Shown here one piece after another: positions 3,813 to 62,755 of a stretch of DNA of 64,000 bases (position 1 is the stretch's first letter; the number at the start of each line of letters is the position of its first letter). Origin of the DNA: a virus. Below the pieces are notes generated by a model, which saw nothing but the letters and a program-made list of their open reading frames with translations, was not told the origin of the DNA and searched no databases. The translations under genes were made by a program, and so were the position numbers. The stretch lies in the IMG/VR virus record IMGVR_UViG_3300037567_000704, positions 22,732 to 86,731 of that record. One strand, 5' to 3'.

Positions 3813-3823
3813 TATTCATTCCT

Positions 3824-6995: not shown

Positions 6996-8428
6996 CAGTC
7001 TTCACCCTTGAAAGTCAATGTATGCAATTTGTTCACTCCTATCACATTGTTGAGGCTTCGCCCGATGGTTGCACTACCCGCAGCGGGGCCGATGAGGAAC
7101 TTCGTATTTTCTACTTCTACCGCTCTTACAGAGATGATAGGAATGATGTTTATCTGAATGAAGGAGAATAATGAGAGATTTTCCTCTGTGGTTTGGGAAA
7201 TCTTATCTGGGTTATGAGGTGCTGAAGAGGCAATCATTCCCTCACTTACCCCATGCAACACTCCCTCTATACCTTTCTGCACAGTTAAGAAATTGAAGTC
7301 TGACATTCTGGTAGTAAGGGTGTGTCTTGATTCGGTGATTAGTCTTTTCACCCCTTTATACAGAGCCACTTTACCCGGTCTCATGTCCCAAGTATCTGGA
7401 TGACCACTGCTCCTCAATGAACCTCTGTGTATAGCGTTGGATTTCAGAATCTGTCTTGCTACTCTCTTAGCATCTGCTTTGCTCTTCACAGTCGCATCGA
7501 AAATATTCGTGACGTTCTCTTGTATATCCAAATCAAATCTTCCTTGTTGTCTCTCGGAATCACTTACAGTTACGCTTGCTACTTCATTCAAGGATATGGA
7601 ATTTCCCACAACTGTTATCTTGTTCTCGGTGTTGTCTATCGGATTGGTCTCCTCGTTACCAGTTCTCCCGAACTCTGAGATTTCTCTACTTGCTTCTGTG
7701 AAAACTAACGGTGTGTATAACAGATTAGCGAACCTGTCGAAGTATACGATATTAGAATCGTGTCTCGATGTGAACTTCAATGCGGATATCAACGTCACCC
7801 CGTAAAAATCCTGAGCGAGGAACTTAGTCGTATGCTTTCTTCTTCCTTCATTGGTATTGCTTGGGCTTCTCAAACTACCGAGAGACACGGATGTCAGAGT
7901 CCCAACCATATCAGTTCCCAATTTCATAGCGAGGTCACTCGTTCTGAAACCCACATCTATAGGGTCACCTAGATGGACAGCGTCTCCCTTGAGCCCTATG
8001 TCATTCAAAGACCTCCCCTTCATGTTTCTGAGATTCATTTTCACTCCATCTGTGGAAGCCTCTATAGAACTGAATGTGAGCCTCTTGGTGATATCAGCAT
8101 CGTTGTAGAGTAGTATTGGCTTCTTAGATGTAGGAGAAAGTGCAGAGTTTTGGTAAAAGGGTGCAATCTTGCTTGTGTAACCGTGCCCCCTCTTGTGAGT
8201 CAATTGAACGAAACCGTCTCCTTCTACCAATTCATAAGCATTTTCACTGAAGACATTGTAAGTGGCGTTATTCCTATTTTCTATGGTGACTTTCTGCTTG
8301 TTAGAAGTCTGACTTGAAACAAGACCATGATGCACTGCGTTGTCTACAAAAACTGGTTGTCTCGCTTCAGTCATGATTTCAACTACATCGAAATCAAACT
8401 TTCCAGCGCTCGCCATCAATTTAGTCAT
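6995..8428 (-). CDS. Putative baseplate hub / tail-tip protein
   Basis: 477 aa. C-terminal pattern ADAKRVARQILK...DMRPGKV...ITESRH resembles hub/Tal-type proteins. Position and start/stop overlap fit. Confidence 0.45.
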   Translation of the reverse strand: MTKLMASAGKFDFDVVEIMTEARQPVFVDNAVHHGLVSSQTSNKQKVTIENRNNATYNVFSENAYELVEGDGFVQLTHKRGHGYTSKIAPFYQNSALSPTSKKPILLYNDADITKRLTFSSIEASTDGVKMNLRNMKGRSLNDIGLKGDAVHLGDPIDVGFRTSDLAMKLGTDMVGTLTSVSLGSLRSPSNTNEGRRKHTTKFLAQDFYGVTLISALKFTSRHDSNIVYFDRFANLLYTPLVFTEASREISEFGRTGNEETNPIDNTENKITVVGNSISLNEVASVTVSDSERQQGRFDLDIQENVTNIFDATVKSKADAKRVARQILKSNAIHRGSLRSSGHPDTWDMRPGKVALYKGVKRLITESRHTLTTRMSDFNFLTVQKGIEGVLHGVSEGMIASSAPHNPDKISQTTEENLSLFSFIQINIIPIISVRAVEVENTKFLIGPAAGSATIGRSLNNVIGVNKLHTLTFKGED

Positions 8429-47407: not shown

Positions 47408-48892
47408 TTACGATATTAACCACGAATCCCCGTCTCCACTCCTAGGTTCGCCACTGAGCCATTCATCGAATCCCGGCATATAATCATCAAGCATAACTAC
47501 CGACCCTCTGAATTCCTTTGAGGCCCAATTTGCAAGAGCGAGACTCATCGCCAAATCATCATGAACACCAACGCTCTCTAACTTGCCGTTCTTCTGCATA
47601 CCAAAACGATTCAATTCAATTTCCAACTCGTGTGTATACTTCCTACTCTTCTCATTACCATACGGTAATTTGATTTGACCTTGCTCGAAAGCGAGCAAAA
47701 GACTCATGAAAAGAGACTCTTTCTTTGCACGAGTGGTCATGAATACTCTGATTGGCATATCTGCCCTCATTTCCCTCATCTCTTGTTCAAGCATGCGCTG
47801 GAAGTTATTACCCTCAAGTTCTATGAGTTCAGGAGAGAATCTGCTATTGAGTATCACCATCATCCTCTTCTGCGCCATTGAAGACATTCCACGCTCATGC
47901 ACAACGTGAACTATCTCTTTGAAATCCTCATTGGGTTTCTGTCGCATGACAGTCATAGCAGTGAAGTCAGCGTTCTTATCCGATGAAATTGCCGGGTCAT
48001 GCCCGATGAAATGCTGTCCGAACACACCATCTGCCTCCCCCTCTTCGTTGTAATTCGTCTCTGCTCTGTCAAGAAGAACGAGTTTGGTGTCTCTAGACGC
48101 TTCTAGTATGTCCATCGGGAACATACTAGCGACATCGTGAATCGGCTCACAGAGATACTCTCGACTGAACTGAATGGCTGGCATGCTCATTCTCCTCCGT
48201 TCTAAAGATTCCAAATCCCATCTACTGGGCCACAACGCCTCGCCTTCCGAGTTGATTGCTGGATAAGTGTCTACCACAAAGGTCTCTTTCTCCTCCAATT
48301 CTGCATACAGGTCATTGTAACTGAATGGCGTTCCTACCATCATTAGTTTACTACTGTGATGGAGAACCGGGAGAAGGACACCGTAGAACCAATCTGCTGC
48401 TCTCTGCAATTCGGTTCCCGTTGTGCCCCACAAGATATCGTCGCAAACAACAACATCAGGGTGGAATCCACGAGTGGCCCCTCCAACCGATTTAGCCATT
48501 ATTCGAGAGCCATTCGATAGTTCGAAGTATGACTTCGCCCATGGTCTGCCCTCTGGAATCAAAGGTCTCAAGATATTGTTGCCGTCTATGTTTTGCTTGA
48601 TGAAACGCATGTGCTCAAGAGTCTGTTCAAGGGAGTGAGAAAAAATCATGACATGTAATCCGGGATTAAAAGTGGCTAGCCACAAGGCATATGACATGAA
48701 GAAAACTGATTTACCATGGTCACGAGATGCCTTCACGCAGAAATACTGATGTTTGTCCAGACCTATCTTCCACTCGTCATGATGCCAGTTCATCTCGAAA
48801 CCCAGTATATCCATGAAGAAATACTCGAACGACTTCTTAGACATCTCGAAGTCCATCTGGTCAATGAATTCCTGCATGCTCTCATTAGTCAT
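47408..48892 (-). CDS. terL: Terminase large subunit
   Basis: Walker A ASRDHGKS, Walker B VVVCDD, coupling motif VGTP, RNase H-like IGHDPA..DFTA and HDDLAMSLALA. Confidence 0.95.
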   Translation of the reverse strand: MTNESMQEFIDQMDFEMSKKSFEYFFMDILGFEMNWHHDEWKIGLDKHQYFCVKASRDHGKSVFFMSYALWLATFNPGLHVMIFSHSLEQTLEHMRFIKQNIDGNNILRPLIPEGRPWAKSYFELSNGSRIMAKSVGGATRGFHPDVVVCDDILWGTTGTELQRAADWFYGVLLPVLHHSSKLMMVGTPFSYNDLYAELEEKETFVVDTYPAINSEGEALWPSRWDLESLERRRMSMPAIQFSREYLCEPIHDVASMFPMDILEASRDTKLVLLDRAETNYNEEGEADGVFGQHFIGHDPAISSDKNADFTAMTVMRQKPNEDFKEIVHVVHERGMSSMAQKRMMVILNSRFSPELIELEGNNFQRMLEQEMREMRADMPIRVFMTTRAKKESLFMSLLLAFEQGQIKLPYGNEKSRKYTHELEIELNRFGMQKNGKLESVGVHDDLAMSLALANWASKEFRGSVVMLDDYMPGFDEWLSGEPRSGDGDSWLIS

Positions 48893-49866
48893 CGTGCCGC
48901 CGCCTTCAGTAATCGGAATGCAATCTCCATAGGCTCACTCTTCGGCAATTGCACTCCGCCCGACAATATCTGCTCCAAATCCTCTTCTTCTGTTGGCAGA
49001 GGAGTTTCCTCCACCAACTGGGTATCTAAGACTGGAGTTTCAACATCAGCCATAGATTGGTCTCCCATAGATTGGTCATCCATATTCGGCATATCATAAT
49101 CCATATTATAATCTCGCACTTGCTCAGGTGCACTCGGCACATATCCACCCCCTTGGCTTGTAGCGCCAGTTGTAGTACCTGTAGTCGGAGACGATTGACT
49201 GACTGCGACTGGCGCGACTGGTGGTGGCGATATTGGTGCGCCCGAAGAAAGTGATGGGGTCGAAAGTGATGGAGATATTCTAGGAACAACGCTACCAGAA
49301 GAGGGGTTTATTGTGGTGGGGCTTCCGAATAAATCGGCGGTCTTCTTTCCAGTAGAGGGGTCATAGTGCCCCCCTCTGGTATCTGTAGCCCCTCCGGTAT
49401 TACCTAACTGAAAACCAGTAGGCACATTGAAACCTTGATTTCCCCATCTATTCCATTGACCTTGATTGGGCATACCTCCTCCTTGACCGGAAGGAGGACG
49501 AGCCGGAGCATATGCTGCTATCTGTTGTTTCCAACCACCCGGTCTGTGATATCCAATAGCCTGACCAACCCGGTCAGAAGGGTCAAGAGCATCTCCAGCC
49601 TTACCTGCTCCAGCCCCTGTCGCTGCACCATACGCCGCAGCAGAACCAGCCCCACTCACTATGTCTTGTTGATTCGCTCCGGCATCTGCAAGGCTGGTCA
49701 AGAACTGAAGAGCACCAAGACTGCCAGCAGCAAAGCCACCTAAACCAGTTTTCGGTTTTCCCATTAAATTCCCTAGCAATCCAGCGCTTAGACTTCCGCT
49801 ACCAGCGCCACTACCACCGCCACCGCCACCGCCACCGTTTGCTTTGACCAGAACCTTACCCATCAC
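48889..49866 (-). CDS. Gly/Ala-rich low-complexity protein, possible internal/ejection protein
   Basis: N-terminal VLVK then poly-Gly and hydrophobic Gly/Ala helices. C-terminal EPMEIAFRLLKA motif. Confidence 0.55.
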   Translation of the reverse strand: MMGKVLVKANGGGGGGGGSGAGSGSLSAGLLGNLMGKPKTGLGGFAAGSLGALQFLTSLADAGANQQDIVSGAGSAAAYGAATGAGAGKAGDALDPSDRVGQAIGYHRPGGWKQQIAAYAPARPPSGQGGGMPNQGQWNRWGNQGFNVPTGFQLGNTGGATDTRGGHYDPSTGKKTADLFGSPTTINPSSGSVVPRISPSLSTPSLSSGAPISPPPVAPVAVSQSSPTTGTTTGATSQGGGYVPSAPEQVRDYNMDYDMPNMDDQSMGDQSMADVETPVLDTQLVEETPLPTEEEDLEQILSGGVQLPKSEPMEIAFRLLKAAAR

Positions 49867-52040
49867 TGTCCCTCCAAAGATACCTTCACTGCTTTAACGA
49901 GAACAGGTTTTGTATTATACGCCTTCGCCACACGATTCCAATCCCCTTTGCTATGAGCGATTGCTCTAATGTCCTGCTTTTCAAGCCCCATCTTATCAGC
50001 CAAGAACGAATGACTATCTGTTGTGCCTGATGGGACTGTGGACACCCTCTTCAAGACTGCCACATCTTTCTTGGCATCTAACATCTGCAATCTCTCCATC
50101 GCTTTGATTAGCCTGTCTTCCACTGGTATCGTATCAAAACTGGCAGCCACTGGGTAATCTGGCAGAGTCTGTTGAGTAGTCTCCGACTTTTGCCTCTGGG
50201 CATTGATGAAACGCTGCGCTGCCATTTGTGGCGTGAACTCTTGCCCACTTTGCAATGCCTGAGTTTGAAGAGATGATTCATCAATAGCATGTTGAGGATT
50301 TTGTGTCTTGAAATGCTCGTATATCTGCGCTTGAGTCTCTGGGGAATAATTAGCGATGCGATTCCATATGTCAGAATCACCAGAGGGCGCTGGCGGAGCG
50401 AGTGGCGTCATCTCCTCATCAGAGTCAGGACCGGCCTGTGGTTGAGGGTGTTCCTGCCATTCTGGTATTAGTCTCTCAGCCAGATGCGGAGGTATAGGCA
50501 CTGGACCCATGTGTTGGTCCAACAGTCTGGGAAGAGTGACGTTGGAGTAGTCAGGAGCCTCTGTGGTTGCTCTTCTCGGTTGATGGCCATGAGCGTGAGA
50601 GATGGAATCAGCCACGATATTGAACAAACCGTCCTGCGCCTCTAAATCCGGGTGAGGCGGGAAGTGCTTAAGTGCGAACTCCTTCATTGATTCGGGTTCC
50701 ACATGGTGCGCTAGACCGAACAGTTTCTTTCCCATTTCATGACTGTTCCTGTCTTGAGCGCCGGGAGTCTTACCAGCAGTTATCCCCATCATGGTATTAT
50801 CGAGAGCCTTGGCTTCCTCAGGTGAGAGTTGTGAGAGCAACTGACTGTGCATCTCATCGAGGATGTGATTGGCCGCTCCCGCTTGGTCTGCATTCCCAAG
50901 CAGGAAAGCAAGAGCAGCGGGACTCTTCATCATCTGACCTGCCAATATTTTAATGCCAGTCTCATCTTGTAATGCCTGTCTCAGAGACATCTGCCCACCC
51001 TCTACATTTATTATCGGGGTGTCCAACAGTTCAGGAGGGGTTTTAGCAAGCATATTGGGAGCGAATTTAGCGAGTGCCTTTTCGTATATCACAGGACTGA
51101 ACGGCCTCCCTCCAGCCCTCTTACCCTCGAACTCCTTGAAAATCTGCTGCGCGTCAGGATGAGCGAGAATCGCTGGTAGGGCATGATACATCTCCCAACT
51201 ATGCACAGCCTCTTGGAAGGGTTGGACTTGGTTATCAGTAACACCAAGCGCATCAGCGATATGAGGAGGAAGCAAACCCTGAGGTGTGAGCGCCTCACCG
51301 AACTTACTCTTCAATCTCTTTGCTACTGGTATACCATTTTGGTCCCAACTGAGGTCTTCGCCAGATATGTAACCATGTGTGATTCCCTCTTCGTATGCCC
51401 CCTCAGGGAAGTCTATGCCGTATTTCTCTGCCAGCATTTGTTTGAGGATTGGGGCGAAACCTAGCCTGTATGACTCAGGATGATGAGCCAGTTTGAACTT
51501 GGCCTTGGACGCTTCCGGGTCAGAACTCATATTCAGTGTAGCGAAAGTGCCTCCTTTTCCGTTGTAGGGATAACTGAGAGCATCTTCTTCACTGTAAGAA
51601 GGACTGTAACCATGAGCCACTAACTTCCTCCAAGCGGCATCCTCTAGGCTGGGTATCTTCATAGCGTCGTTGGTGTGATTCTTATTGACGTGGTCAATGA
51701 CCTCTTGAATGAAATCATAAGGGTCAGGAACGCCTAACTCACCGAGTTTGTGTATCAACCCGTCAATGCCGTGCCTGTGAGTATGTCCGTATTCATCCTG
51801 CCAGACCATCTCCCCATGCTCGCCCTTCATCCACTGTCCACTTGGTGTCCGGTCTCCGAGATGAGCGTGTAGAGGCAAGTCAATCCCATAATGCAACGGG
51901 TTCTTCTCGTCGTCGTGGAATATCCCTTCGTGAGGCATCCCGATGTAGACTGGTTCACCAGTCTCCGGGTCCACTCGAAAGATTCCCTCTCCTTTTCTAA
52001 GCAACAGAGGAGAATTGAGAAGTGAAGATATCACGCTCAT
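49863..52040 (-). CDS. Hypothetical 725-aa protein (possible internal virion protein)
   Basis: Long coupled ORF. N-terminal PLLLRKG and an HTH-like C-terminus. Confidence 0.6.
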   Translation of the reverse strand: MSVISSLLNSPLLLRKGEGIFRVDPETGEPVYIGMPHEGIFHDDEKNPLHYGIDLPLHAHLGDRTPSGQWMKGEHGEMVWQDEYGHTHRHGIDGLIHKLGELGVPDPYDFIQEVIDHVNKNHTNDAMKIPSLEDAAWRKLVAHGYSPSYSEEDALSYPYNGKGGTFATLNMSSDPEASKAKFKLAHHPESYRLGFAPILKQMLAEKYGIDFPEGAYEEGITHGYISGEDLSWDQNGIPVAKRLKSKFGEALTPQGLLPPHIADALGVTDNQVQPFQEAVHSWEMYHALPAILAHPDAQQIFKEFEGKRAGGRPFSPVIYEKALAKFAPNMLAKTPPELLDTPIINVEGGQMSLRQALQDETGIKILAGQMMKSPAALAFLLGNADQAGAANHILDEMHSQLLSQLSPEEAKALDNTMMGITAGKTPGAQDRNSHEMGKKLFGLAHHVEPESMKEFALKHFPPHPDLEAQDGLFNIVADSISHAHGHQPRRATTEAPDYSNVTLPRLLDQHMGPVPIPPHLAERLIPEWQEHPQPQAGPDSDEEMTPLAPPAPSGDSDIWNRIANYSPETQAQIYEHFKTQNPQHAIDESSLQTQALQSGQEFTPQMAAQRFINAQRQKSETTQQTLPDYPVAASFDTIPVEDRLIKAMERLQMLDAKKDVAVLKRVSTVPSGTTDSHSFLADKMGLEKQDIRAIAHSKGDWNRVAKAYNTKPVLVKAVKVSLEGQ

Positions 52041-53512
52041 GCTGTTCTTCCACTCCTGCTGGTGTATATACCAACAGGGTCTGTCCCGAAATATCTGGGC
52101 TCGTTAGTAGGGTCTGATGTCCCGCCTTCGTTCCTATTGGTCTGTTTCGGCCCGTTAGCCGGATGATTGGGATGATGGGCATCTTTGCCTCCCTTGTCCC
52201 CCTTACCTTTCTTCTTGCTCTCCTTTTCCTCAAGCAGCCTCTTGACTTTATGCATCAACAATCTGATTTCCTGCTGTTCTCCCCAGTTATGCTTCTTCTG
52301 CAAATCACTTCCTGCAAAGATGTCGAAGGATGTAGCCATGCTTTGAGAAGACATGCTTCCTGAGAATGGATTAGAAGAACCGCCCATATTGAGACGAGGC
52401 CTTCCACTGATTGTAGGCGGAACTATTGGTGGAGGACGATGAGGCTTCAACTTAGGCTTCGGCATTCCCTTTGTTCCCATTGCTCCCATTGCTCCCGCTC
52501 CCGTTGCTCCCGCTCCCGTTGCTCCCAAGTTTCTCTCTGAAGGTAGCAATGATTGCAATCTACCACCGCCAGTTGCACCTGCGAAATATTTTCTTGGATT
52601 GCTCTTTGAAGGGCTGGCGGCAGTCACTCTGACGTTACCTTGCCTCTTTATCGCGTCCTGCTGTCCTAGATACTCTCGATAAGCAGCAGGGTCTTTCGAC
52701 TTAGGCTGCTTAACAGCAACTCCCCTGTGTTCCATCTCCACAGAAAGCGGGGCATTCATCATACCAGTCTTAGTGCCTCTACGAACTCCTCTCCTCTTGG
52801 CTTTGTAAGACCTCATAGTAGCACCAATACCACCCATCATTCCACCGGGAGGCTTCTTGAAAGTCCCAGTGCTTGGTCTCCATTTCTTACCTTCCTCTTT
52901 AGAACGACCTCGCTCTGTTTCTTTGGTTTCCTTGCCACGCAAGTCCAAAGGTCTCATCATCGAGATATCTGGATTATCCTCTGCTGAGAAAGACTTGAGC
53001 AACTGGAATGGTATCTCAATCAGTTCACTCATCTGAACTGGATGTCCATAGGCGAAACCCGGACCTCTCGCTTGAGTAGCAAGGCTGGTCAAAGCGCCGA
53101 GATTACCAGCAGGCCCAGTCTGGGCGTGTAATTCTCTATCTATGTCAAACTTGTCGGGCTCATTCTCCTCGTCATATTGCTCATCGGAACGCCACGGTTC
53201 ATCTTCATCATCATCTTCATCATCTGAGAGACCTGCTAACATGTCGAGCGTTATTTTGAAATGTTTACGCTCCCTCACTCTCTCATCTTGCTTATCTTGG
53301 TCATTCTGCCTCTTTTCCTTCTCAGCATCAGCATATCTTGGGTCAGACGGACTACGACCAGAATCAGGTGTTTCTGATTCATACCTGTCTTCTCCGTCAT
53401 TAGTACGGAACATAGAGGAAGATTCACTTCTCGGAGCATACATCCGAGTATCACTACCTCTTCCCATCATCCCTCCAGTCTTAATCAAGACAAAACCACG
53501 ACGAACTTTCAT
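52037..53512 (-). CDS. Disordered protein with acidic N-half and basic C-half
   Basis: D/E-rich then K/R/G-rich halves separated by ELIEIPFQLLKS. Confidence 0.6.
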   Translation of the reverse strand: MKVRRGFVLIKTGGMMGRGSDTRMYAPRSESSSMFRTNDGEDRYESETPDSGRSPSDPRYADAEKEKRQNDQDKQDERVRERKHFKITLDMLAGLSDDEDDDEDEPWRSDEQYDEENEPDKFDIDRELHAQTGPAGNLGALTSLATQARGPGFAYGHPVQMSELIEIPFQLLKSFSAEDNPDISMMRPLDLRGKETKETERGRSKEEGKKWRPSTGTFKKPPGGMMGGIGATMRSYKAKRRGVRRGTKTGMMNAPLSVEMEHRGVAVKQPKSKDPAAYREYLGQQDAIKRQGNVRVTAASPSKSNPRKYFAGATGGGRLQSLLPSERNLGATGAGATGAGAMGAMGTKGMPKPKLKPHRPPPIVPPTISGRPRLNMGGSSNPFSGSMSSQSMATSFDIFAGSDLQKKHNWGEQQEIRLLMHKVKRLLEEKESKKKGKGDKGGKDAHHPNHPANGPKQTNRNEGGTSDPTNEPRYFGTDPVGIYTSRSGRTA

Positions 53513-53940
53513 TCCATAACCTCCACTACTGGCCCCATAACCTCATAAGCAGATTCTTTGACCATTTCGGCCAGTTCTGCATAGAAGCCCTTAACAAAAG
53601 GAGGGCTTGTAAAACACTTACCCATACTCTTACACTCTTCCTCGAAATGAGGTAGAAGTGACTTGAGTTTCTCACGAACGGGAATCACTACAGCAGGCTC
53701 ATCTTCCTCGGTCAATGTCTTCAGAGCCTCCATTATCTCTATGAGATAATTACCATATTCCATGTTACCATGGGATTCTTCATTGATGTAATATTTGAAA
53801 CGCTGATAGATTAGAGAGACATAATCCAGAAAAGTAGGAAGTTGTTTGGGTGTTATCTTTGACTGCTGTTTCAAGAGGCGATATCCGGGATGCCCCATTT
53901 GCAGCAAATCACTGATAACTATCTGATTCAAAATACTCAC
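53509..53940 (-). CDS. Hypothetical helical protein (start re-called to GTG 53940)
   Basis: GTGA overlap with the upstream stop codon. Confidence 0.55.
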   Translation of the reverse strand: MSILNQIVISDLLQMGHPGYRLLKQQSKITPKQLPTFLDYVSLIYQRFKYYINEESHGNMEYGNYLIEIMEALKTLTEEDEPAVVIPVREKLKSLLPHFEEECKSMGKCFTSPPFVKGFYAELAEMVKESAYEVMGPVVEVME

Positions 53941-54611
53941 TCCACCTGTTCCAATAACTGACTCTTGATTCTCTTCCAACTATCAGGACTCTCCTTGGCT
54001 AATTCGACCTTGAGGATATTTATCGTCTGATTGATTTGAGTCCCTTCGGTCTCTGGACCCCACTTCTCATCCAATTTCACCAAATCCTTGATTGTCTCTC
54101 TCACCTCTTTGTGAAGAGAGACCGCATCTTTGACAAAACCGTCCTCATGGACACTACCATCCTCAAGTAACTCATTGAGTTTGTCGTTGAGTCTTTCAGC
54201 GTTGGAACGAAGGGCGTTCATCTCTTGACCAAGCGCTAGAGAGACCTCTATCGCCGCCGCCTTTCTTACAAGCGGTTGAAAATGGTGTTTCATGTGATGA
54301 TATACTGAAGATTCAGCACATTCCAATAACTCCGCTAACTCCTCGCTGGGAAGGCTTCCTTCAAAGTAAGCGGTCTCTAAATCACCGCGTTGCTCATGCG
54401 TGCAAATAAGACAAGAGGGATTCGCCGCCATGTGATAGTCCCCCATGTGATTCCTGTAATGACGGTCTGATGTGTTGGCCCTCCAACTCATCTCCTTATC
54501 TAGTTCCTTATGCGATATTTCACCACTCAATAAGGCCCCTTCCAAGGCCTCTCTCGTATCACTTTGACAAAAGGCGCAAGACCTCTTGACCACTTGCTCT
54601 CGCTCGGCCAC
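53937..54611 (-). CDS. Putative terminase small subunit with tandem Zn-finger/HTH domains
   Basis: Two repeats of CxxC...HTH...HxxxH (CAFC..HYRNH and CLIC..HMKHH), then a coiled coil and an INQTINIL tail. Upstream of terL. Confidence 0.5.
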   Translation of the reverse strand: MAEREQVVKRSCAFCQSDTREALEGALLSGEISHKELDKEMSWRANTSDRHYRNHMGDYHMAANPSCLICTHEQRGDLETAYFEGSLPSEELAELLECAESSVYHHMKHHFQPLVRKAAAIEVSLALGQEMNALRSNAERLNDKLNELLEDGSVHEDGFVKDAVSLHKEVRETIKDLVKLDEKWGPETEGTQINQTINILKVELAKESPDSWKRIKSQLLEQVE

Positions 54612-54660
54612 ACAAAGTCGGAGTTACAGATACCACATGAACGTTGTTGCATTATATGAT

Positions 54661-54924
54661 TTACATCCGATTTATCCGAGTGTAAATCCCGCCTAACAAC
54701 ATGATGGAGGCAAAGATGCCCATCATTATGAAAGAGGCATCCATCTGGTTAATCTCATTACCTTTGAGAGCGAGTATGAGCATAGAGCAGAGAATGGCGC
54801 TAATAAGTTGTATCATTACCATATCAATGATGACGCTGTGCTTAGGAGCCATCAGATTAAGAGACATACCTGCAAACTGCTTCGAACCGGGCATATTACC
54901 TCGCATACCCCCTCCACTAATCAT
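54661..54924 (-). CDS. Small membrane protein with two TM helices (start re-called to 54924)
   Basis: Hydrophobic segments VIIDMVMIQLISAILCSMLILAL and ASFIMMGIFASIMLLGGIY. GAGAGGT SD before ATG 54924. Confidence 0.65.
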   Translation of the reverse strand: MISGGGMRGNMPGSKQFAGMSLNLMAPKHSVIIDMVMIQLISAILCSMLILALKGNEINQMDASFIMMGIFASIMLLGGIYTRINRM

Positions 54925-54925
54925 C

Positions 54926-55567
54926 TCAACCTCTCCCGAATATTGACCTATTGATGAAACCGCCAGCCGCCTGTCCGACACCCTCTAACATTCCGGGGTC
55001 AGCAAGTGCACTGCTCAATGCTCCCTGTAACAAAGATTGGTCTGCCAACTGCAAAATCTGCTGTCTTTCTCCTTCCGCTTTTTGTATTATCTGCATGGAA
55101 GTATTCTGCAGAGAATTGAGTTGGGCGATGATATTCTCAGCACTCAATGTTTGTAGGTCACTAGGCATACTAGTAACATCCAAAGCCATAGTTCCCTCTT
55201 CATCCAAAGTGAATGTGCAATTCTTGAGAACATTGAGTATGGAGTAAGTAGTGAGATTGGAAAGCATCTCTATGAACACCGGCATATTCTGACTTATGAT
55301 GAATCTGTCAATAGGCTGAAGAGTGCCAAGCATGGCAGCGAGAACTTGAGTATCTGAAGGAGGCGCTATCGGCTGTTGATACTGTTGATACTGTTGAGCC
55401 GAAATTCCCGCTCCACCTAGAATACCAGCAGTGAAAGGAGAGGCCCCACCATAAGCGGTGTTATACTGAGCCCCATAATCACTTGATTCTGGTTGTGATT
55501 GCGGTGTTAATCCCAAACTGAGAGTGCTAGTCGGTGAGGCATTCATATTCGAAAGACCAAGCGTCAT
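54926..55567 (-). CDS. Gln-rich helical protein of the GTPase operon
   Basis: 213 aa with a low-complexity N-terminus, helical core and amphipathic Gly-rich C-terminus. ATGA-coupled. Confidence 0.6.
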   Translation of the reverse strand: MTLGLSNMNASPTSTLSLGLTPQSQPESSDYGAQYNTAYGGASPFTAGILGGAGISAQQYQQYQQPIAPPSDTQVLAAMLGTLQPIDRFIISQNMPVFIEMLSNLTTYSILNVLKNCTFTLDEEGTMALDVTSMPSDLQTLSAENIIAQLNSLQNTSMQIIQKAEGERQQILQLADQSLLQGALSSALADPGMLEGVGQAAGGFINRSIFGRG

Positions 55568-56592
55568 TGTGCTACCTCTTGATTTGTAACTACCGTTTGT
55601 GCTGCTTGAGCCACCACTGGAGGCGGTTGTATTACCGGAGCAGGGGCGAGTGTTTGAGTCTGTTGGTTGAGAACACTATTGAATGCTGCTTGAGCAGCCG
55701 CTTGGTATTCTTCCGCTTCTCTTTGAAACATCCTCATGTCAAATTGTATCATAGTTATATCGTTCATACCACTCTCCGGATTTGGTATGTGCCAAACATT
55801 GATGCCTTTGGTTTTATTGGAATCCTTCTCTATCTCTTGAAAGAATGGTTCGTATTTCTGAACCAATTCGGGCACTGAGACTGTATCATCAGTGCCCTGA
55901 ATAGCCGCTACAGGCACTGTGACTATACTGACTCCCTGTTTTATCTTGTCTCGGAACCTACTCGGTTTCATTTCATCTTCTTTATCTTGCTCATCCTCCC
56001 ATTTGCAGAGAAGATGATAGAGATGAAGATGTTCAGGACAATAAGTTCCTCGCATTAACCTACCACTTGTGACTCCTGTTCTCGCAAGGAATGCTTCGGT
56101 CTCACCAGAAATCGGATTCTGCCAATACATCTCCCAAAGGCTTCTACCCGACTCTTCATCTGTTATTCTCGCATAGAGATTGTCGTATTCTATGAGTTTC
56201 TTACAATCACACCCATCAACAACGCAAACCGCACTATCCTTGTTGTATCTGTAATTACTCCAAGCCCATCTACGAGGGTCGAGTAGAGAACGCTTCGTGG
56301 GTCTCAACAACTTGTATGCCTGCTTGATGTCATGCTTACGAGCCTTTCTTGGGTCTGCATGACGACTCGGATAGAAATTGACTTTAGGAACCTCCAAATT
56401 CTGTTGAACTGCATAACTCTGCATATACTGTTGAGCGGTGGCTTGTTCCATTATAGCCGCTTGATTGAATTGAGGATTACCTTGTTGAGCAAGACTCATC
56501 ACAGCGGCTTCACTCAGATTACTCAACGATTGTGATGGTAAGGGCGTTCTGGTTATTGTGCGATACATATTATCTGGGATGTCCAATACCAT
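55564..56592 (-). CDS. Cys/His-containing protein of the GTPase operon (start re-called to 56592)
   Basis: GGAGGA SD before ATG 56592. CVVDGCDC and YCPEHLH are possible Zn ligands. Q/A/P-rich termini. Confidence 0.6.
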   Translation of the reverse strand: MVLDIPDNMYRTITRTPLPSQSLSNLSEAAVMSLAQQGNPQFNQAAIMEQATAQQYMQSYAVQQNLEVPKVNFYPSRHADPRKARKHDIKQAYKLLRPTKRSLLDPRRWAWSNYRYNKDSAVCVVDGCDCKKLIEYDNLYARITDEESGRSLWEMYWQNPISGETEAFLARTGVTSGRLMRGTYCPEHLHLYHLLCKWEDEQDKEDEMKPSRFRDKIKQGVSIVTVPVAAIQGTDDTVSVPELVQKYEPFFQEIEKDSNKTKGINVWHIPNPESGMNDITMIQFDMRMFQREAEEYQAAAQAAFNSVLNQQTQTLAPAPVIQPPPVVAQAAQTVVTNQEVAQ

Positions 56593-56594
56593 GT

Positions 56595-56783
56595 TTAGTC
56601 CTCCAAAGGCGCAGGCGCTACGTGAATAGTCATTTTGCCATTTTGGGCCGATAAACTCCACTCCAATTTATTCCCAGCAGTCAATCCAAATTGATGGACA
56701 ATCCACATGGGAACTGTGGTTCTCAACGAATTACTACCCCCTCCAGTGGGAACCAAAGCAGTAGTCGTCTTACCTCTTGTCAT
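56595..56783 (-). CDS. AbrB/MazE/SpoVT-family swapped-hairpin DNA-binding protein
   Basis: SNSLRTTVPMWIVHQFGLTAGNKLEW fits the AbrB consensus. Likely ATG at 56783 after GAGGGGTG. Confidence 0.75.
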   Translation of the reverse strand: MTRGKTTTALVPTGGGSNSLRTTVPMWIVHQFGLTAGNKLEWSLSAQNGKMTIHVAPAPLED

Positions 56784-56818
56784 GTATGCCCGACACCCCT
56801 CTACATCAAAAAGGTCAC

Positions 56819-57532
56819 TCAAGTGGTCAATAATTCAATCATGGTTGATTCTACGTTCCAACCTATCCTTGTGGCCATGAAAGCACGTTTTGTGGGTAGT
56901 CTCGCCTTCTGAAGACGGATTAAGTCATCTCGGAAAGGGTCGAATAACTTGTGTTCGCCTATTCTTCCCTGCTGCCATAGTTCTGCAGCATTCTTATCAA
57001 AAAACCTATCAGCCTTGTTAGCAACTAACATCAGTAATCGAGGACTGTATTTCTTACCCCTCCATCTACTTTTGAGAGTTCTGTATCTATACCGCCGCTC
57101 TATGAGACTATCCACAAGATACTTGAAACCGGCAATTTGTTCCAATCCATCACCGCCGCCCTTGAAAGCGCGGTCATCGAACATGTAAACTATCACTTCA
57201 CACTGTCTAGCAACCATATCGTCAATCCAAAGATTCCAGAACCTCTCCTGTCCCCCAATATCAGCAGAATACACAACTCTCTTCTCTCCCTCCCAAGCGA
57301 TTCTCTTTCTCGTCGGTTTGGGAAGTAAATATCTACTCAGTATTTTATAATGTTCTGTCCTCTCGTCTTCTGGTATCTCTCCCATCTCACCGGGAGTAGT
57401 CATATATCTGTCAAGTGTGGTCTTACCAACCATTGTGCCACCATAGATTCCTACCCTCCTTGGTCTCCAAGAATGATAGACATTCTTGCCATACAGGGCT
57501 ACGCCTATCAGGACGCTACCCATTCCGACCAT
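56819..57532 (-). CDS. Small Ras-superfamily (Arf/Rab-like) GTPase with hydrophobic N-terminus
   Basis: G1 GGTMVGKT, probable G2 Thr in ERT, G3 DIGGQERF, G4 ANKAD, G5-like MAT. 237 aa. Confidence 0.85.
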   Translation of the reverse strand: MVGMGSVLIGVALYGKNVYHSWRPRRVGIYGGTMVGKTTLDRYMTTPGEMGEIPEDERTEHYKILSRYLLPKPTRKRIAWEGEKRVVYSADIGGQERFWNLWIDDMVARQCEVIVYMFDDRAFKGGGDGLEQIAGFKYLVDSLIERRYRYRTLKSRWRGKKYSPRLLMLVANKADRFFDKNAAELWQQGRIGEHKLFDPFRDDLIRLQKARLPTKRAFMATRIGWNVESTMIELLTT

Positions 57533-57535
57533 GAA

Positions 57536-57805
57536 TCAGACCGCCGCATCTATTTTACTATACAACCAATCAGCCAAATCTTGCGCTTGACCATAAGCCC
57601 ATTCTACAGTCCAACCCCAAAGCGAAAATGAAGAATTGGACTCAATGGCACTCACCAAGAGAGCGGCAACTACGGTTGCGATAATGGTCCTAATCCAACC
57701 AACACCCCACTCATAGGTGTTGTCCACAGTATTGGCGAGATGCATAGCGCGAAGAGTTTCCTCAACAGAATCATCTTTCGGAGTTTTGAAGATGCGTCCC
57801 ATCAA
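57536..57805 (-). CDS. Small membrane protein
   Basis: TM segment WGVGWIRTIIATVVAALLVSAI followed by a Trp-rich amphipathic helix. Coupled to its neighbours. Confidence 0.65.
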   Translation of the reverse strand: MMGRIFKTPKDDSVEETLRAMHLANTVDNTYEWGVGWIRTIIATVVAALLVSAIESNSSFSLWGWTVEWAYGQAQDLADWLYSKIDAAV

Positions 57806-58428
57806 TTACCGCTACCATTACCCTTGTATCTTAAGTCTGGGGTTCCATCTTTCTTCAATCTCACATTGAGGCTCGAAGGAACTCTCGGTCTTGGTATTAC
57901 TGGCGCGCTTTCCAATCCAAATGGTGTTTGCTCTGTGAGAGAATCCAAACCCATGCTCAATGGCCTTGCTTCTACTAAAGGAGGTGAAGATATCGTGTCT
58001 ATTCCTAAACCTTGCATACCGATATTTGAATGGGGAGGCGTTTGTCCGGGATTTTGTTGAATCCAATGCAACTCCTTCTCTAACTGCATCTCCTGCATCC
58101 TGAGTTCCATATCTGCTCTTCTCTGGTCATAGTTGAACTGCTGTTCCCTAAAGCGATAATCCCTCTGTCGCTGCAACTCAGATACTCTCACTTTGTCTTG
58201 CATCTGCTCTTCGAAGAACATCTTGAAGAGGTAGTAAGCCAAAATTTGAACAGCCAACGCTCCCATAGCGTAAGTTATCCCATTTACGTAATGCCCAGCA
58301 CTTTCTCCTCCCGGTAACCATATCCCTGCATCATAAACACCTACAGCCGCACCGATAAGTAACGATTGCGTGAGTATCAATCCAGTCAATCTCATCTCTG
58401 ATTTATCCATGGGGTCTTGCACACTCAT
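57802..58428 (-). CDS. Membrane protein: 2 TM helices, coiled coil, basic KDGTPDLRYK tail
   Basis: LTGLILTQSLLIGAAVGVY and GITYAMGALAVQILAYYLF, then a Q/E/R coiled coil. Confidence 0.7.
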   Translation of the reverse strand: MSVQDPMDKSEMRLTGLILTQSLLIGAAVGVYDAGIWLPGGESAGHYVNGITYAMGALAVQILAYYLFKMFFEEQMQDKVRVSELQRQRDYRFREQQFNYDQRRADMELRMQEMQLEKELHWIQQNPGQTPPHSNIGMQGLGIDTISSPPLVEARPLSMGLDSLTEQTPFGLESAPVIPRPRVPSSLNVRLKKDGTPDLRYKGNGSGN

Positions 58429-58465
58429 TATTATGACCTCTAAATAGACCCCGCGAGAGGGAAGA

Positions 58466-58476
58466 TGATAAGGGTT
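58466..58476 (-). promoter_or_regulatory. Putative BRE/TATA promoter (AACCCTTATCA) of the GTPase operon
   Basis: Euryarchaeal-type CTTAT box in the 63-bp intergenic gap, about 40 nt upstream of ATG 58428. Confidence 0.4.
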
Positions 58477-58491: not shown

Positions 58492-60087
58492 TCAAATAGC
58501 GTGTCTCAACGTTCCTTTATCTTTGAAATGCCGAGCCCGATTGGAATGTATGCCTTCTAACGTCAGTTTCCCACCTTCCGTATGGCTGACATCCTTACCA
58601 CCACCTGTGCCGTAGATGCCTCTTCGTCTCCTCTCTCGATTCAAGTCCTCACGGTATTTCACCCTCTTCGGGTTCGACTCATATTTCGTATCATACTCCA
58701 GTTTGTGCTGTCTCGCCTCTGGTGACACTCTCTCCTTGAGCAACCGGAGGGCTATATCCATTGGTTCGCTTCTTTGCAGGTCTTGGAACTCTTCTGAAAA
58801 CGGATGTTCTTCATTAAATAGCGTGGGTTTTGACTCCAAATCCCTCAAGTTCATCTCCTGTTCCAATTCCCACCTGTCCGGGCCTGAATTAGGATGAAAG
58901 CGCACATGAGTTTCTCCATCGTCACTCAAAGGCACGGGGGCTATCCTGCCATCTTTATCACGGACATATTCCGGCATTCTCGATAACCACTCTCTTATCT
59001 GTGAATTGTCCTTGTCGGCGTGTGGGCGATTTTCCAAAGAGGTCAAAGATGGGGCATCGTAGTTCATCCTATCCACATTATCAATGATATTTCTTATGTT
59101 GCTTGACCTCATTTGGTCGAAGTCAGAACTATCTAACGGTGCGAACCTCGCATCCTTTATCGGAATGTCTCGGTATTCCCTTGCATCTCCATAAGTTTTC
59201 TCATATCTGAAGTTCGGGTCATGAAAATTACCGAAATCCTGTGGTACTTCTTTGAGCAACTGGAAGGCTATGTCCATAGGTTCAGATGCGTTCTTTCCTT
59301 GCCAACTGTCTCCGAATTGTGGTTCTTCTGCTGTTGGATTACTCATTGCATTGTCAAATGCAGCATCACGGCTTTCAGGGTGAAGACAACCTGTGCAGAT
59401 TCCTTGTTTATCATCCATAGGAACACCTTCACTGAAATTACGAATGTCTGCAGCACAGGTTCGGCATTCTCTTGGGAACATAACACTTGGGTCATGGTCG
59501 AATTGTTCTGGCGGCATCAATATACGATTCATTATAGAGTAGTCTTTGACACCGAAGTTCTTAGGTGGAGTTTCGTCCTCTTCTTTGAGCAACTGGAAGG
59601 CTATTTCCATAGGCTCGCCCATCTCAACGAAACCAGAACCGATAGGATTTGAAGTATACTGTCCATAGGCATATTTCTGCCCTGTAGGGAACTCAGTGTA
59701 AGCCGGTGGGTTTTTTTCTGTAAAACCGCCTTCCTCTAACCTACCTACAACTTCTCCATCTGGTTTCAAAAACTCAGTCTGTCCTGTTCCACTAGGAGAG
59801 TGAAGTATCGAGTCCTGTTTATGCTCTTCAGCAAGTCCTAGTATCTCAGGAATTAGAGGTTCAGGCACGTTAGATAGAGCAATAGAATTCTCAGGCCCCC
59901 ATTCTTCACTCTGTCCACGACCTGAGATGATTTTCATTTGCAGTTTATTTTCCAATTCCCCAATCTGAGACAACAACCTATCGTGTCTCTCACTTTGCTC
60001 CTTTTGACTCATCGGATTTTCGTCATTCACCCAATTTGGTTTGGAAGATATGAGTATATTGTGGGTTTCAGGGTCAAATAACTCCAT
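58492..60087 (-). CDS. Modular polyprotein-like protein: DUF3293-like domain, Zn finger, unknown module, C-terminal HNH-like domain
   Basis: Modules are separated by three EPM[DE]IA[FL][QR]LLKE copies. Contains LAEEHKQDSIL, CRTC..CTGC and GGGKDVSH...HSNRARH. Confidence 0.6.
   Translation of the reverse strand: MELFDPETHNILISSKPNWVNDENPMSQKEQSERHDRLLSQIGELENKLQMKIISGRGQSEEWGPENSIALSNVPEPLIPEILGLAEEHKQDSILHSPSGTGQTEFLKPDGEVVGRLEEGGFTEKNPPAYTEFPTGQKYAYGQYTSNPIGSGFVEMGEPMEIAFQLLKEEDETPPKNFGVKDYSIMNRILMPPEQFDHDPSVMFPRECRTCAADIRNFSEGVPMDDKQGICTGCLHPESRDAAFDNAMSNPTAEEPQFGDSWQGKNASEPMDIAFQLLKEVPQDFGNFHDPNFRYEKTYGDAREYRDIPIKDARFAPLDSSDFDQMRSSNIRNIIDNVDRMNYDAPSLTSLENRPHADKDNSQIREWLSRMPEYVRDKDGRIAPVPLSDDGETHVRFHPNSGPDRWELEQEMNLRDLESKPTLFNEEHPFSEEFQDLQRSEPMDIALRLLKERVSPEARQHKLEYDTKYESNPKRVKYREDLNRERRRRGIYGTGGGKDVSHTEGGKLTLEGIHSNRARHFKDKGTLRHAI
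58732..59616. repeat. Three dispersed 36-bp direct repeats (58732-58767, 59248-59283, 59581-59616)
   Basis: ttctttgagcaactggaaggctat(g/t)tccatagg(t/c)tc. The last two copies differ at 2 positions; the first is more diverged. Confidence 0.9.
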
Positions 60088-60148: not shown

Positions 60149-61429
60149 TCACTCTTGAAGGGCAGGCTTACCCCTCCTCGCTATCTCACTCTGCAAAGAT
60201 TGCCTTCTCTCACCCATCTCAGGTTTGTCCATCGAGAACTGAGGCATTTCTCCCTCAATTTCCGAAAGCCCATGCCAATCTTTCGCAGGCCATCTACTAC
60301 CTATCATTTCTGGCGACAAGCGGCGAGTCTCTTCTTCACCCATATCACTCATCTCATCCTCCATCTCAGGCCTCTTCATCCTGAATGGGTCTTGCAAATT
60401 ACTGAGACCTCTTGCCGGAGACCTCTCATCAGGATTTTCACCAAGCAATTGTAGTAATGCTTGCAAACCGTTTGGGTCATCACGGTATGTTTCGTCTATC
60501 AAAGACTCACCGCCCTCTTCCTCCTCTGGTTCTAGGTCTTCTGTTGGGGGGACCTGCTGATATACGCCTCCCGGCTGAGAATCTGAGTCTTCAGGAGCCA
60601 TCTGAGCGTATTTCCTCTTATTTACGAACTTGAGTAGCGACCAAGCATGATTGAGAGGCCCATCGAAGGACCTAGCGAAGATGTTCTTAGGTTCTCTACC
60701 CGATTCAAACTCAGCAATGGTGGAAGGCCCACCTATAACAGGTCGGCCCTCATCCGGAAACGGTTTTTTCTCATATGGTCTTTTAGGAGCAGGCAGAGAC
60801 CCCACATCAGCAGGAGAAGTCTCAGGCATCGGTGGGTCCACACCGGGCGGGCGGTTTCTCATTGGATTATAATGAGAATCACGAATAGCCGCTTGATTCA
60901 AAGCCTGTAAGAGTTGCAAATCCTGCGTTTTCGGACTACCAGAGGGTTCTGTCCTCATCTGTAAGTCTTGAGTTGATTGGCTCACAGGGCCGGGTTTAAT
61001 CTCAGCCCCAAAACGGTCAAGTTGTCGAAAGTCCTGCTCTTCTTGTGGGGCTTCTGCTAGTGCTTGACCCTCTTCAGATGCATCGAACTCCTCTCGCCTT
61101 CCCTTGGCTTGCCCCACACTACTGTTCATGCTGTCAATTATCCCCTGAAGACCGGGGTGGGCGGGTGGAGCAACACTTTCTCGTGGTTTTTCACCCATTC
61201 CCGCAGTCGCTTCAGGGATTGGGGCTTTCTTCACATCTGGCTTAGAGGTGTCTTCAGGATTCTTTGGGGACTTGCCGCCCACTGAGATGACCATTACCAT
61301 GCCCTTCTTGTTGTTCTTGTCAGAATCAGATGCCTTTCCGATACAATCTCCTTTGCAATCATCAGGGCAAACGCAACCCTTCGCACCACAACCACACGGA
61401 CACTTCTTCTTGTCGGAATCAGGCATCAA
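60149..61429 (-). CDS. Disordered P/E-rich protein with N-terminal Cys cluster and internal AWSLLK motif
   Basis: CPCGCGAKGCVCPDDCKGDC and GPLNHAWSLLKF. Confidence 0.65.
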   Translation of the reverse strand: MMPDSDKKKCPCGCGAKGCVCPDDCKGDCIGKASDSDKNNKKGMVMVISVGGKSPKNPEDTSKPDVKKAPIPEATAGMGEKPRESVAPPAHPGLQGIIDSMNSSVGQAKGRREEFDASEEGQALAEAPQEEQDFRQLDRFGAEIKPGPVSQSTQDLQMRTEPSGSPKTQDLQLLQALNQAAIRDSHYNPMRNRPPGVDPPMPETSPADVGSLPAPKRPYEKKPFPDEGRPVIGGPSTIAEFESGREPKNIFARSFDGPLNHAWSLLKFVNKRKYAQMAPEDSDSQPGGVYQQVPPTEDLEPEEEEGGESLIDETYRDDPNGLQALLQLLGENPDERSPARGLSNLQDPFRMKRPEMEDEMSDMGEEETRRLSPEMIGSRWPAKDWHGLSEIEGEMPQFSMDKPEMGERRQSLQSEIARRGKPALQE

Positions 61430-62175: not shown

Positions 62176-62219
62176 TTAAAGCGACACCATAATTAGTTTG
62201 CGCCCTTTCCCGTTCATTT

Positions 62220-62552
62220 GTGAGCGATGGAATAGTGAAGATTCTACCCGCGCTTCCAGCAATAGGAAGTGCAATTTCTGGTGCTCTAACAGCCGCGAGA
62301 GCCTCAAAAATAGGTCAAGCATTAGGAAAAGTAGGAGCACAAGGCAAAAAACTCGCAGCAGGAGCAGCAGGAATAGGAGCGGCAGGAGTAGCAGGTGCCA
62401 AAACAGCCCAAGAAAGCCCAATGGGACAGGCTTGGGGGCACTTACAGAACGCTTCTGCAGCAAATCAAGCAGCAAATCAGCAAATGACCTCCGAAGCGAG
62501 ACAATTATCGAGAGCCGGAGCAGGCACTGGCAGCACAACGATGGGGAACTAG
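62220..62552 (+). CDS. Gly/Ala/Gln-rich small protein, only probable plus-strand gene (DNA-pilot-like composition)
   Basis: Fills the gap between minus-strand genes with a convergent stop overlap at 62549-62552. Natural-looking sequence; the opposite-strand ORF looks like its shadow. Confidence 0.65.
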   Translation: MSDGIVKILPALPAIGSAISGALTAARASKIGQALGKVGAQGKKLAAGAAGIGAAGVAGAKTAQESPMGQAWGHLQNASAANQAANQQMTSEARQLSRAGAGTGSTTMGN

Positions 62553-62755
62553 ATTCTGTTATACTGAACGAAGAGGTTTTCACCATCTTCTTGCAGTCCC
62601 GTATCATTTGAGTTCATCATTTTGATGATTGTTCCGAGGATAAAGGACTTCTCCTCCTCAGTGAAAGACAAACCGACAGGTTGAGTCTTCAAAAGTAGCC
62701 AAGCGCGATTAAAAGCCGCACTTGGAGGTGTATTTGGACTATCTCCGATGACCAT
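62549..62755 (-). CDS. Small protein with AFNRAWLLLKT motif
   Basis: 68 aa with the shared motif. Confidence 0.6.
   Translation of the reverse strand: MVIGDSPNTPPSAAFNRAWLLLKTQPVGLSFTEEEKSFILGTIIKMMNSNDTGLQEDGENLFVQYNRI

Follow-up and report, generated by a model that had tools for sequence, protein, structure and literature searches.

A conserved cassette encoding an Arf-like GTPase, small membrane proteins and orphan proteins in a magrovirus-like tailed virus

The window analysed here is a stretch of 64,000 nucleotides (nt) that covers bases 22732–86731 of the 86.7-kb IMG/VR virus record IMGVR_UViG_3300037567_000704, which is estimated to be 80% complete. Between positions 54661 and 58428, its minus strand carries a cassette of seven genes (g1–g7) that includes a divergent Arf-like small GTPase (g3). 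Five of these genes, encoding a two-transmembrane (TM) coiled-coil protein (g1), a small TM protein (g2), the GTPase, an orphan protein (g5) and a Gln-rich protein (g6), form a core whose order is maintained across four diverged virus clades. We propose that this conserved magrovirus-type cassette provides a virus-own, membrane-anchored Arf-like GTP switch together with its partners, and that the resulting complex would deform or open a membrane late in infection, most likely for virion release; the probability of this reading is put at roughly 40%. There is little doubt that g3 is a real nucleotide-binding Arf-like protein, and it probably acts at a membrane together with its neighbours.

The Arf-like GTPase and the conservation of its cassette

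The GTPase gene g3 (56819–57532, minus strand) encodes 237 amino acids (aa). The protein carries the G1 motif GxxxxGKTT, a switch II region reading DIGGQERFWNLW with DIGGQ, and the G4 motif NKAD, in agreement with the initial annotation, which had described a small GTPase with intact G1, G3 and G4 motifs. These three motifs are conserved in an alignment of 18 family members, which also contains a G5-like SA/AT-x-x-G-x-N-V-E element. Motif counts were made on 124 distinct relatives recovered from the loci: GKTT is kept in 120 and NKxD in all 124. Family members also share an insertion of roughly 30 residues, which follows the first helix and lies between G1 and the second strand.

Single-sequence searches were of limited use in classifying this protein. 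No Arf match was obtained in an hmmscan of the window protein at E ≤ 1, and the single sequence retrieved only chance matches from the PDB. Eight of the 18 family members match Arf, the best at E 0.0048 and all below threshold, and the only NCBIfam match was the generic small_GTP model, in nine of the 18. The profile built from the 18 members, by contrast with the single sequence, retrieved 8oun_A (E 1.6e-5), Arl8A (1.2e-4; Arl8A/B at about 1e-4), Rab33B (1.3e-3) and HRas (0.023) from the PDB. In that match 8oun_A is labelled only 'GTP-binding protein'; the entry is cited in a preprint on Asgard ArfR (bioRxiv 10.1101/2024.02.28.582541), and two entries deposited in that series, 8OUM and 8OUK, bear titles that name Asgard Arf GTPases. 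The AlphaFold model of the GTPase has a mean predicted local distance difference test score (pLDDT) of 88.2 and a predicted template modelling score (pTM) of 0.85. When it was compared with the PDB by Foldseek, the matches listed were small GTPases only, and the 26 best structural matches were Arf-family entries. The nearest non-self ESM-Atlas clusters likewise bear PF00025 Arf. The Arf-like type suggested initially is therefore supported by three partly independent lines of evidence that agree, namely the profile, the AlphaFold model and the ESM-Atlas neighbours.

The hydrophobic N-terminal helix noted at the outset also recurs throughout the family. All 121 usable relatives, that is, those with a complete N-terminus, have about 30 residues before the P-loop, and within this segment a 12-residue stretch reaches a Kyte–Doolittle mean of at least 1.0 in 121 of 121 and of at least 1.5 in 115, the hydrophobic character being kept despite sequence divergence. 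In the window protein, the segment is predicted to be helical at residues 2–22; it is hydrophobic and Gly-rich and not clearly amphipathic (moment 0.15–0.32). Judging from this segment, the GTPase probably associates with a membrane.

The possibility, raised along with the initial annotation, that the block is not conserved among related viruses is refuted, as it is kept in both related and distant clades. In the clade of the window (80 IMG/VR loci, GTPase 54–81% identical), g3, g5, g6 and g8, the last outside the seven-gene cassette, occur in 80 of 80 loci, and g1 and g2 in 78, both misses being loci that start at a contig end. The gene g7 is likewise present in 78 of 80, and g4 was found by tblastn in 50 of 80; gene order and strand are the same throughout. 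In the clade of loci L082–L085, where the GTPase is 32–35% identical by BLASTP, the core order is the same, and the cassette is flanked by a thermosome and a tail-fibre-like gene upstream and by a gene for an 808-aa protein downstream. For the P0151 clade, 80 of the 140 relatives found were analysed; 71 contain the five core genes in order and the remaining nine are cut by contig ends. In one of its loci, L097, the third gene upstream of the cassette (3487–3981) encodes 164 aa with a SAP domain at the C-terminus (E 4.4e-10).

The fourth clade, P0129, was located in metagenome contigs and not in viral contigs. It comprises 11 metagenome loci, and the open reading frames (ORFs) of two of them, L170 and L179, were read. 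Here the order is g1, a small TM protein, an inserted acidic protein, the GTPase, g5, a Gln-rich protein and a two-TM protein. The inserted gene, between the small TM and GTPase genes, codes for about 256 aa, including a long tail of Asp and Glu (L170 4229–4999; L179 4217–4999). P0164 was located in neither viral nor metagenome contigs, and the context of P0160, P0127 and P0123 lies outside this survey. As the inner order is kept while the flanking genes differ between clades, the block appears to move as a unit. The seven-gene operon of the initial annotation thus stands as a conserved block, but it is better described as a five-gene core plus two clade-specific extras, g4, which is absent from the other three clades, and g7.

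The family is rare outside these viruses. A phmmer search of 1.84 billion cluster representatives (50% identity) returned only 76 matches, many of them fragments and the most distant about 30% identical, and no canonical cellular small GTPase was recognisable among them. A collection clustered at 90% contained 513 GTPase proteins, of which the 120 listed are 71–91% identical, and the 'phages' collection gave no match to the GTPase. Across 185,579 species genomes, the single match was an 8.8-kb contig carrying the whole viral cassette. This contig (L088, NZMJ01000140.1) belongs to a metagenome-assembled genome labelled Maricaulis sp. and is colinear over its whole length with g1–g10 at 35–74% protein identity; given this colinearity, the contig is most likely a piece of a magrovirus that was mis-binned.

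Gene block and genome setting

The seven ORFs lie on the minus strand at the coordinates first proposed, and their tight coupling was confirmed, with all junctions within −4 to +3 nt. The pairs g1/g2, g3/g4 and g5/g6 overlap through TGATG, TTGA (with a TTG start for g4) and ATGA, respectively, and g2 and g3 are separated by 3 nt. Given ATG starts at 56592 for g5 and 54924 for g7, which the alignments support, the g4/g5 and g6/g7 junctions measure 2 nt and 1 nt, and the two proteins are likely 342 and 87 aa long. Little space flanks the cassette either, with gaps of 63 nt on its upstream and 49 nt on its downstream side.

The promoter-like box of the initial annotation is present in the upstream gap as a TATA-like sequence, CTTATCAT (58465–58472, minus strand), 44 nt before the start codon of g1, and is a candidate archaeal promoter element. 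A GAGGT word (58436–58440, minus strand), 8–12 nt before the g1 ATG, resembles a Shine–Dalgarno sequence, and such a word is found in 43 of 66 upstream regions of relatives. Of 66 distinct upstream regions from relatives, 37 have a TATA-like box of the pattern [CT]TTA[TA]N[AT]T at the corresponding position, compared with 80 of 3300 control windows (2.4%); in the genome itself, no such box stands at the same offset before any of the 15 other minus-strand gaps of at least 25 nt. Because the box is positionally conserved in relatives and precedes none of these other gaps at that offset, a separate transcription start for the cassette is plausible.

TM segments were sought as 19-residue windows with a Kyte–Doolittle value of at least 1.6, which gave one strong hydrophobic window in g1, one in g2 and two in g7. 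Neither Pfam (E ≤ 1) nor PHROG families were matched by g1, g2, g6 or g7. The first gene, g1 (57802–58428, minus strand), encodes a 208-aa membrane protein with two N-terminal hydrophobic segments, the second of them weaker and judged by eye (about residues 50–70), followed by a charged coiled-coil-like stretch and a Pro-rich basic tail. It has homologues in L085 (BLASTP 5e-7) and L170 (hhalign 97%), and its similarity to the L097 counterpart is not significant. The product of g2 (57536–57802, minus strand) is an 88-aa single-TM protein, given as 89 aa (57536–57805) in the ORF list. Its soluble N-terminus of 35 residues is strongly conserved and is likely, from this conservation, to be a protein contact site. 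Similarity to the L085 protein is weak (hhalign 38%, E 3.3e-4) and similarity to L097 is not significant; the L097 protein at that place shares size and topology.

The small gene g4 (56595–56822, minus strand; TTG start) is an accessory of the window clade that encodes a 75-aa SpoVT/AbrB-like (MazE_antitoxin PF04014) protein. The claim of an AbrB-like regulator is backed by 13 of 14 relatives, which match PF04014 with a best E of 4.2e-5, but every match lies below the cut-off, that of the window protein at 15.3 bits against 24.7. A comparison of the g4 profile with the PDB gave nothing below E 0.3. A SpoVT/AbrB-type domain is nevertheless probable on the strength of these matches.

Directly after the GTPase gene, or after g4 where that is present, lies g5 (55564–56592, minus strand; 55564–56661 and 365 aa in the ORF list). 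Its 342-aa product is an orphan for which no Pfam, PHROG, PDB-sequence, fold or ESM Atlas match was detected; a PDB profile match to NUDIX at E 0.27 was taken as chance. The model of g5 is confident only for about residues 71–210. Homologues are present in all four clades (L082, BLASTP 1e-39; L097, hhalign 92.7%; L170, hhalign 99.85%). In a 19-member alignment, two Cys are invariant and a C-P-E-H-L-H-L-Y-H motif is nearly so. A complex prediction for the GTPase and g5 scored 0.00 against a mark of 0.32, a value that counts neither for nor against binding.

The 213-aa Gln-rich protein encoded by g6 (54926–55567, minus strand) has a conserved central part and a Gly-rich C-terminus, with hhalign values of 87% to L085 and 42.9% to L097. 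A match to Cas8g (PADLOC PDLC01103, E 0.039, 11.3 bits) was regarded as chance. The last gene, g7 (54661–54924, minus strand; 54661–54981 and 106 aa in the ORF list), encodes an 87-aa two-TM protein with a short basic C-terminus that resembles holins in topology only. A two-TM protein also follows g6 in L170 and L179, and its BLASTP similarity to g7 is not significant (E 0.77).

Regarding the virus itself, the virion genes in the window encode an HK97-type capsid protein, a prohead protease, a portal and a large terminase, and the part of the record preceding the window encodes a clamp-loader ATPase (RFC), a family B DNA polymerase (PolB), a DNA methylase, a PD-(D/E)XK nuclease and a thermosome subunit. 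Magroviruses are described as combining an archaeal-type, near-complete replisome with a head-tail module, and those of groups A and D as also having a thermosome (PMC5434244, excerpt). Since its gene content agrees with that description, the record is assigned to a magrovirus-like tailed virus; the assignment of magroviruses to Marine Group II archaea, which abound in the ocean, as hosts comes from the literature. In the 'phages' collection, the terminase has only distant phage relatives, at less than 30% identity. The cassette stretch is carried by 20 of the 24 sequencing runs listed, all DNA-type marine metagenomes, from 17 studies.

The cassette is part of the long minus-strand arm, the morphogenetic arm, on which the genes for the large terminase, portal, protease and capsid follow about 5.8 kb downstream of it; the replication genes sit on the opposite arm. 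The tail region of the window contains a single ORF of 5598 aa (8425–25221, minus strand), about one-fifth of the genome record. Small proteins with strong TM segments are few in the whole 86.7-kb record by the Kyte–Doolittle scan, and g1, g2 and g7 are three of them. The sole other small membrane protein on the coding strand is a 143-aa protein outside the cassette (62176–62607, minus strand), which has the most hydrophobic TM segment of the genome (Kyte–Doolittle 3.18). Directly following the cassette is a gene for a 224-aa Cys/His-rich protein (53937–54611, minus strand), kept in 80 of 80 loci of the window clade and not in other clades, for which we obtained only weak HTH_20 and HNH-PHROG hints; a short alternative ORF with a CxxC start (54527–54652) overlaps its start region.

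Otherwise unrelated proteins that flank the cassette share a short peptide, acidic-x-A/P-[FW]-x-x-L-K (hereafter the A[FW]xxLK tag), at no fewer than nine places between 48889 and 63740 on the minus strand. Examples are the proteins encoded at 58492–60087, 52037–53512, 60149–61429 and 48889–49866 (all minus strand). Three copies were counted in a 531-aa protein and one each in proteins of 491, 426 and 325 aa and in several upstream genes, so that both sides of the cassette are represented. None was found in g1–g9. Should this tag serve as an address to the capsid, the proteins of the cassette are not directed there, which would fit an action in the cell.

Proposed function and competing explanations

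In the mechanism that we propose, the hydrophobic N-terminal helix of the GTPase would anchor it to the cytoplasmic membrane of the host, and the nucleotide state of the GTPase would govern how the integral membrane proteins g1 and g2, and g7 where present, assemble with the soluble orphans g5 and g6. The assembled complex would then deform or open the membrane late in infection, most likely timing or executing virion release. We infer membrane binding, GTP control of the partners and a role in egress; for late timing, the position of the cassette in the morphogenetic arm is the guide.

To our knowledge, every lytic virus needs a release or lysis function, and lysis cassettes often precede packaging genes in lambdoid phages. 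Release or lysis is put first among possible purposes because of this need, because the block precedes packaging genes, and because section 4.4 of PMC11706807 proposes no such function for Magrovirales. Taken by itself, release or lysis as the purpose of the cassette remains a tentative suggestion with the odds against it. Doubtful as well is its most specific form, a self-contained, non-holin, GTP-timed egress machine in which a helix-anchored Arf-type switch would bring in membrane and scaffold proteins so that the membrane buds, tubulates or opens.

Several observations weigh against a GTP-switched membrane machine for egress. At the level of single sequences, the GTPase falls short of formal Pfam Arf membership: the window protein scored 9.7 bits for Arf (PF00025) in the genome search, against a cut-off of 22.3, and its single-sequence Pfam match was to Roc at E 0.04, below threshold. 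The residue after DxGG, which is the place of the catalytic Gln in Arf proteins, is Q in 64, E in 46, D in nine and H in five of the 124 relatives (Q in the window protein), and DIAGE was read in four further loci. As this residue varies across relatives, the switch may not rely on an Arf-type catalytic Gln, and fast intrinsic hydrolysis may not be a family-wide property. The partners raise similar doubts. In the P0151 clade, g1 and g2 are analogues of the window proteins by place and topology alone. The description of g5 as a Cys/His protein applies to most members, but the second Cys and both His of the motif are lost in the P0129 clade and the motif is partly lost in L085; since it is not family-wide, the analogy with a zinc-finger GTPase-activating protein (GAP) is weakened. 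No holin, endolysin, lysis PHROG, ArvB (DUF2073) or ArvC (DUF2072) was detected in the block proteins at E ≤ 1. Lysis families were likewise missing from the Pfam and lysis-category PHROG matches of the seven cassette proteins and two neighbours, in scans that took in 38 distinct proteins (two from the related loci L097 and L082) and not every ORF of the window. PADLOC defence models gave no match to the cassette proteins other than the weak one to g6. None of the 24 sequencing runs listed that were searched for the stretch was an RNA run carrying it. Finally, the cassette is placed inside the morphogenetic arm among A[FW]xxLK-tagged proteins, and an assembly role is thus possible.

Among the alternatives, the best placed, though still unlikely, is that the cassette takes over the host at its membrane without releasing virions, by mimicking or overriding an Arf/ArvA-type switch; division block, superinfection exclusion, vesicle traffic or a replication or assembly compartment would be possible outcomes. 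The Arf-like character of the GTPase and its membrane helix suit this explanation. There are also cellular and mobile precedents, as ArvA and two operon partners control vesicle formation in Euryarchaeota (PMC10927574, excerpt) and Arf-family GTPases occur on Asgard integrated elements (bioRxiv 10.1101/2024.03.22.586370, excerpt), and a compartment could serve the near-complete magrovirus replisome (PMC5434244, excerpt). However, the block has no similarity to the ArvB or ArvC families, no close cellular relative suggests mimicry of a host protein, and the cassette lies on the arm opposite the replication genes.

Unlikely too, and ranked next, is a helper in morphogenesis or packaging that would organise virion assembly without breaching the membrane, for instance as a membrane tether for proheads or the packaging machinery, or as a timer of head or tail assembly. 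Its location some 5.8 kb ahead of the genes for terminase, portal, protease and capsid, the tagged proteins encoded on either side and its membership, like that of structural genes, in the core gene set of the lineage all favour such a role. Nevertheless, the tag of the neighbours is missing from g1–g9, no structural PHROG or Pfam family was found among the block proteins, and other clades have other neighbours, namely the thermosome and tail-fibre-like genes of L082 and the SAP-domain protein of L097.

An improbable explanation, compatible with any of these roles, is that the GTPase is a slow or non-hydrolysing nucleotide-binding scaffold, a GTP-dependent or constitutive platform without a switch cycle. 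It would account for E or D at the catalytic position in 55 of 124 relatives and H in five, and no GAP-like or guanine nucleotide exchange factor (GEF)-like family was found in the block by Pfam. On the other hand, there is hardly any variation in the P-loop, DxGG and NKxD, which would be expected if the protein must bind nucleotide and contact the gamma-phosphate; the window protein itself has Gln, and Sar1 and SRbeta have His at the same place.

Lastly, although small GTPases are common in archaea and magroviruses took host genes such as the thermosome (PMC5434244, excerpt), a host small GTPase captured recently and functionally unconnected to its neighbours, a scenario that the initial annotation had allowed for, can be dismissed as extremely improbable, being contradicted by the 76 matches among 1.84 billion representatives without a recognisable canonical cellular GTPase, by a sole species-genome match that is a mis-binned viral fragment with g1–g10, and by neighbours that are fixed in four clades at GTPase identities down to about 30–36%.

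Novelty and comparison with known systems

The initial annotation knew of no described equivalent, and we likewise found no publication describing the GTPase gene or the cassette, although the supplementary gene tables of magrovirus papers may list the gene. The word 'GTPase' is absent from the main texts of PMC5434244, PMC11706807, PMC10160649 and PMC8651126, and by title and abstract no tailed-virus GTPase appears among the papers retrieved on Arf GTPases and archaeal viruses or on small GTPases and Marine Group II viruses. The gene has already been annotated by machine, as 'GTPase SAR1 family protein' by JGI and as 'putative GTPase domain-containing protein' in the Atlas. With 76 clusters in 1.84 billion and absence from cells as far as searched, the GTPase is a sharp marker for tracking these viruses. 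The cassette is a concrete set of five to seven genes for expression and testing, and may address how archaeal tailed viruses act on membranes, whether Arf-type N-terminal-helix switching works outside eukaryotes and Asgard archaea, and which partners serve a switch where no known GEF or GAP exists. If the proposed reading is true, egress would be controlled by a GTPase instead of a holin, and an Arf-like membrane machine would have evolved in viruses of non-Asgard archaea.

With the Arf family (Arl8, Arl3, Arf1/6, Arl1, Sar1 and SRbeta, and the Asgard ArfR structures 8OUM, 8OUN and 8OUK), the viral protein shares the G-domain fold, the GKTT P-loop, the DxGGQ...W switch II and an N-terminal helix that precedes the first strand. 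In the GTP-bound form, Arf-family proteins bind membrane through this helix and recruit effectors; an interswitch toggle links nucleotide state to release of the helix, and membrane binding of archaeal ArfR requires it (bioRxiv 10.1101/2024.02.28.582541, excerpt). The viral GTPase differs in its low identity to solved structures (about 15–19%), in reaching no Pfam threshold and in its insert of about 30 residues. Moreover, its N-terminal segment is hydrophobic and Gly-rich, not amphipathic, the catalytic Gln is replaced in about half of the viral family, and the gene comes from a tailed virus whose host is a non-Asgard archaeon.

An archaeal parallel in gene organisation is ArvA-ArvB-ArvC (OapABC), also an operon of a small Arf-like GTPase with a hydrophobic N-terminal helix and small partners, one of them Cys-rich. 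Genetic evidence indicates that ArvA and its two operon partners drive vesicle formation in Haloferax; ArvB (DUF2073) lies directly downstream of ArvA, and ArvC (DUF2072 zinc ribbon) within two genes downstream (PMC10927574, excerpt). In contrast, g4, g5 and g6 have no DUF2073 or DUF2072 match (Pfam, E ≤ 1), the Cys/His motif of g5 is not universal, and the viral block contains integral membrane proteins, none being reported for ArvB or ArvC in the excerpt of PMC10927574. The comparison with ArvA was drawn from its published description.

Putative holins are reported in section 4.4 of PMC11706807 for Vyasavirus only, among the Adrikavirales viruses of Poseidoniales, and that section discusses no egress system for Magrovirales. 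Like the holin lysis cassettes of tailed phages, the viral block contains small proteins with charged ends and either one or two TM segments, clustered, tightly coupled and upstream of packaging and head genes; holin-like topology, and topology only, is seen in g7 (87 aa, two TM segments, basic end) and g2 (88 aa, one TM segment). It differs from them in having no holin or endolysin family match and in a core built of a GTPase and two large orphan proteins.

Giant viruses carry Rab/Ras-type genes. On Asgard integrated mobile elements, Arf-family GTPases have been found that cluster with cellular Arf groups and are viewed as transferred eukaryote-signature genes (bioRxiv 10.1101/2024.03.22.586370, excerpt). 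The present case resembles these elements in that a Ras-superfamily GTPase gene resides on a mobile genome. Unlike theirs, the viral family lacks close cellular relatives, and its gene is a constant member of a membrane cassette of several genes in a head-tailed virus.

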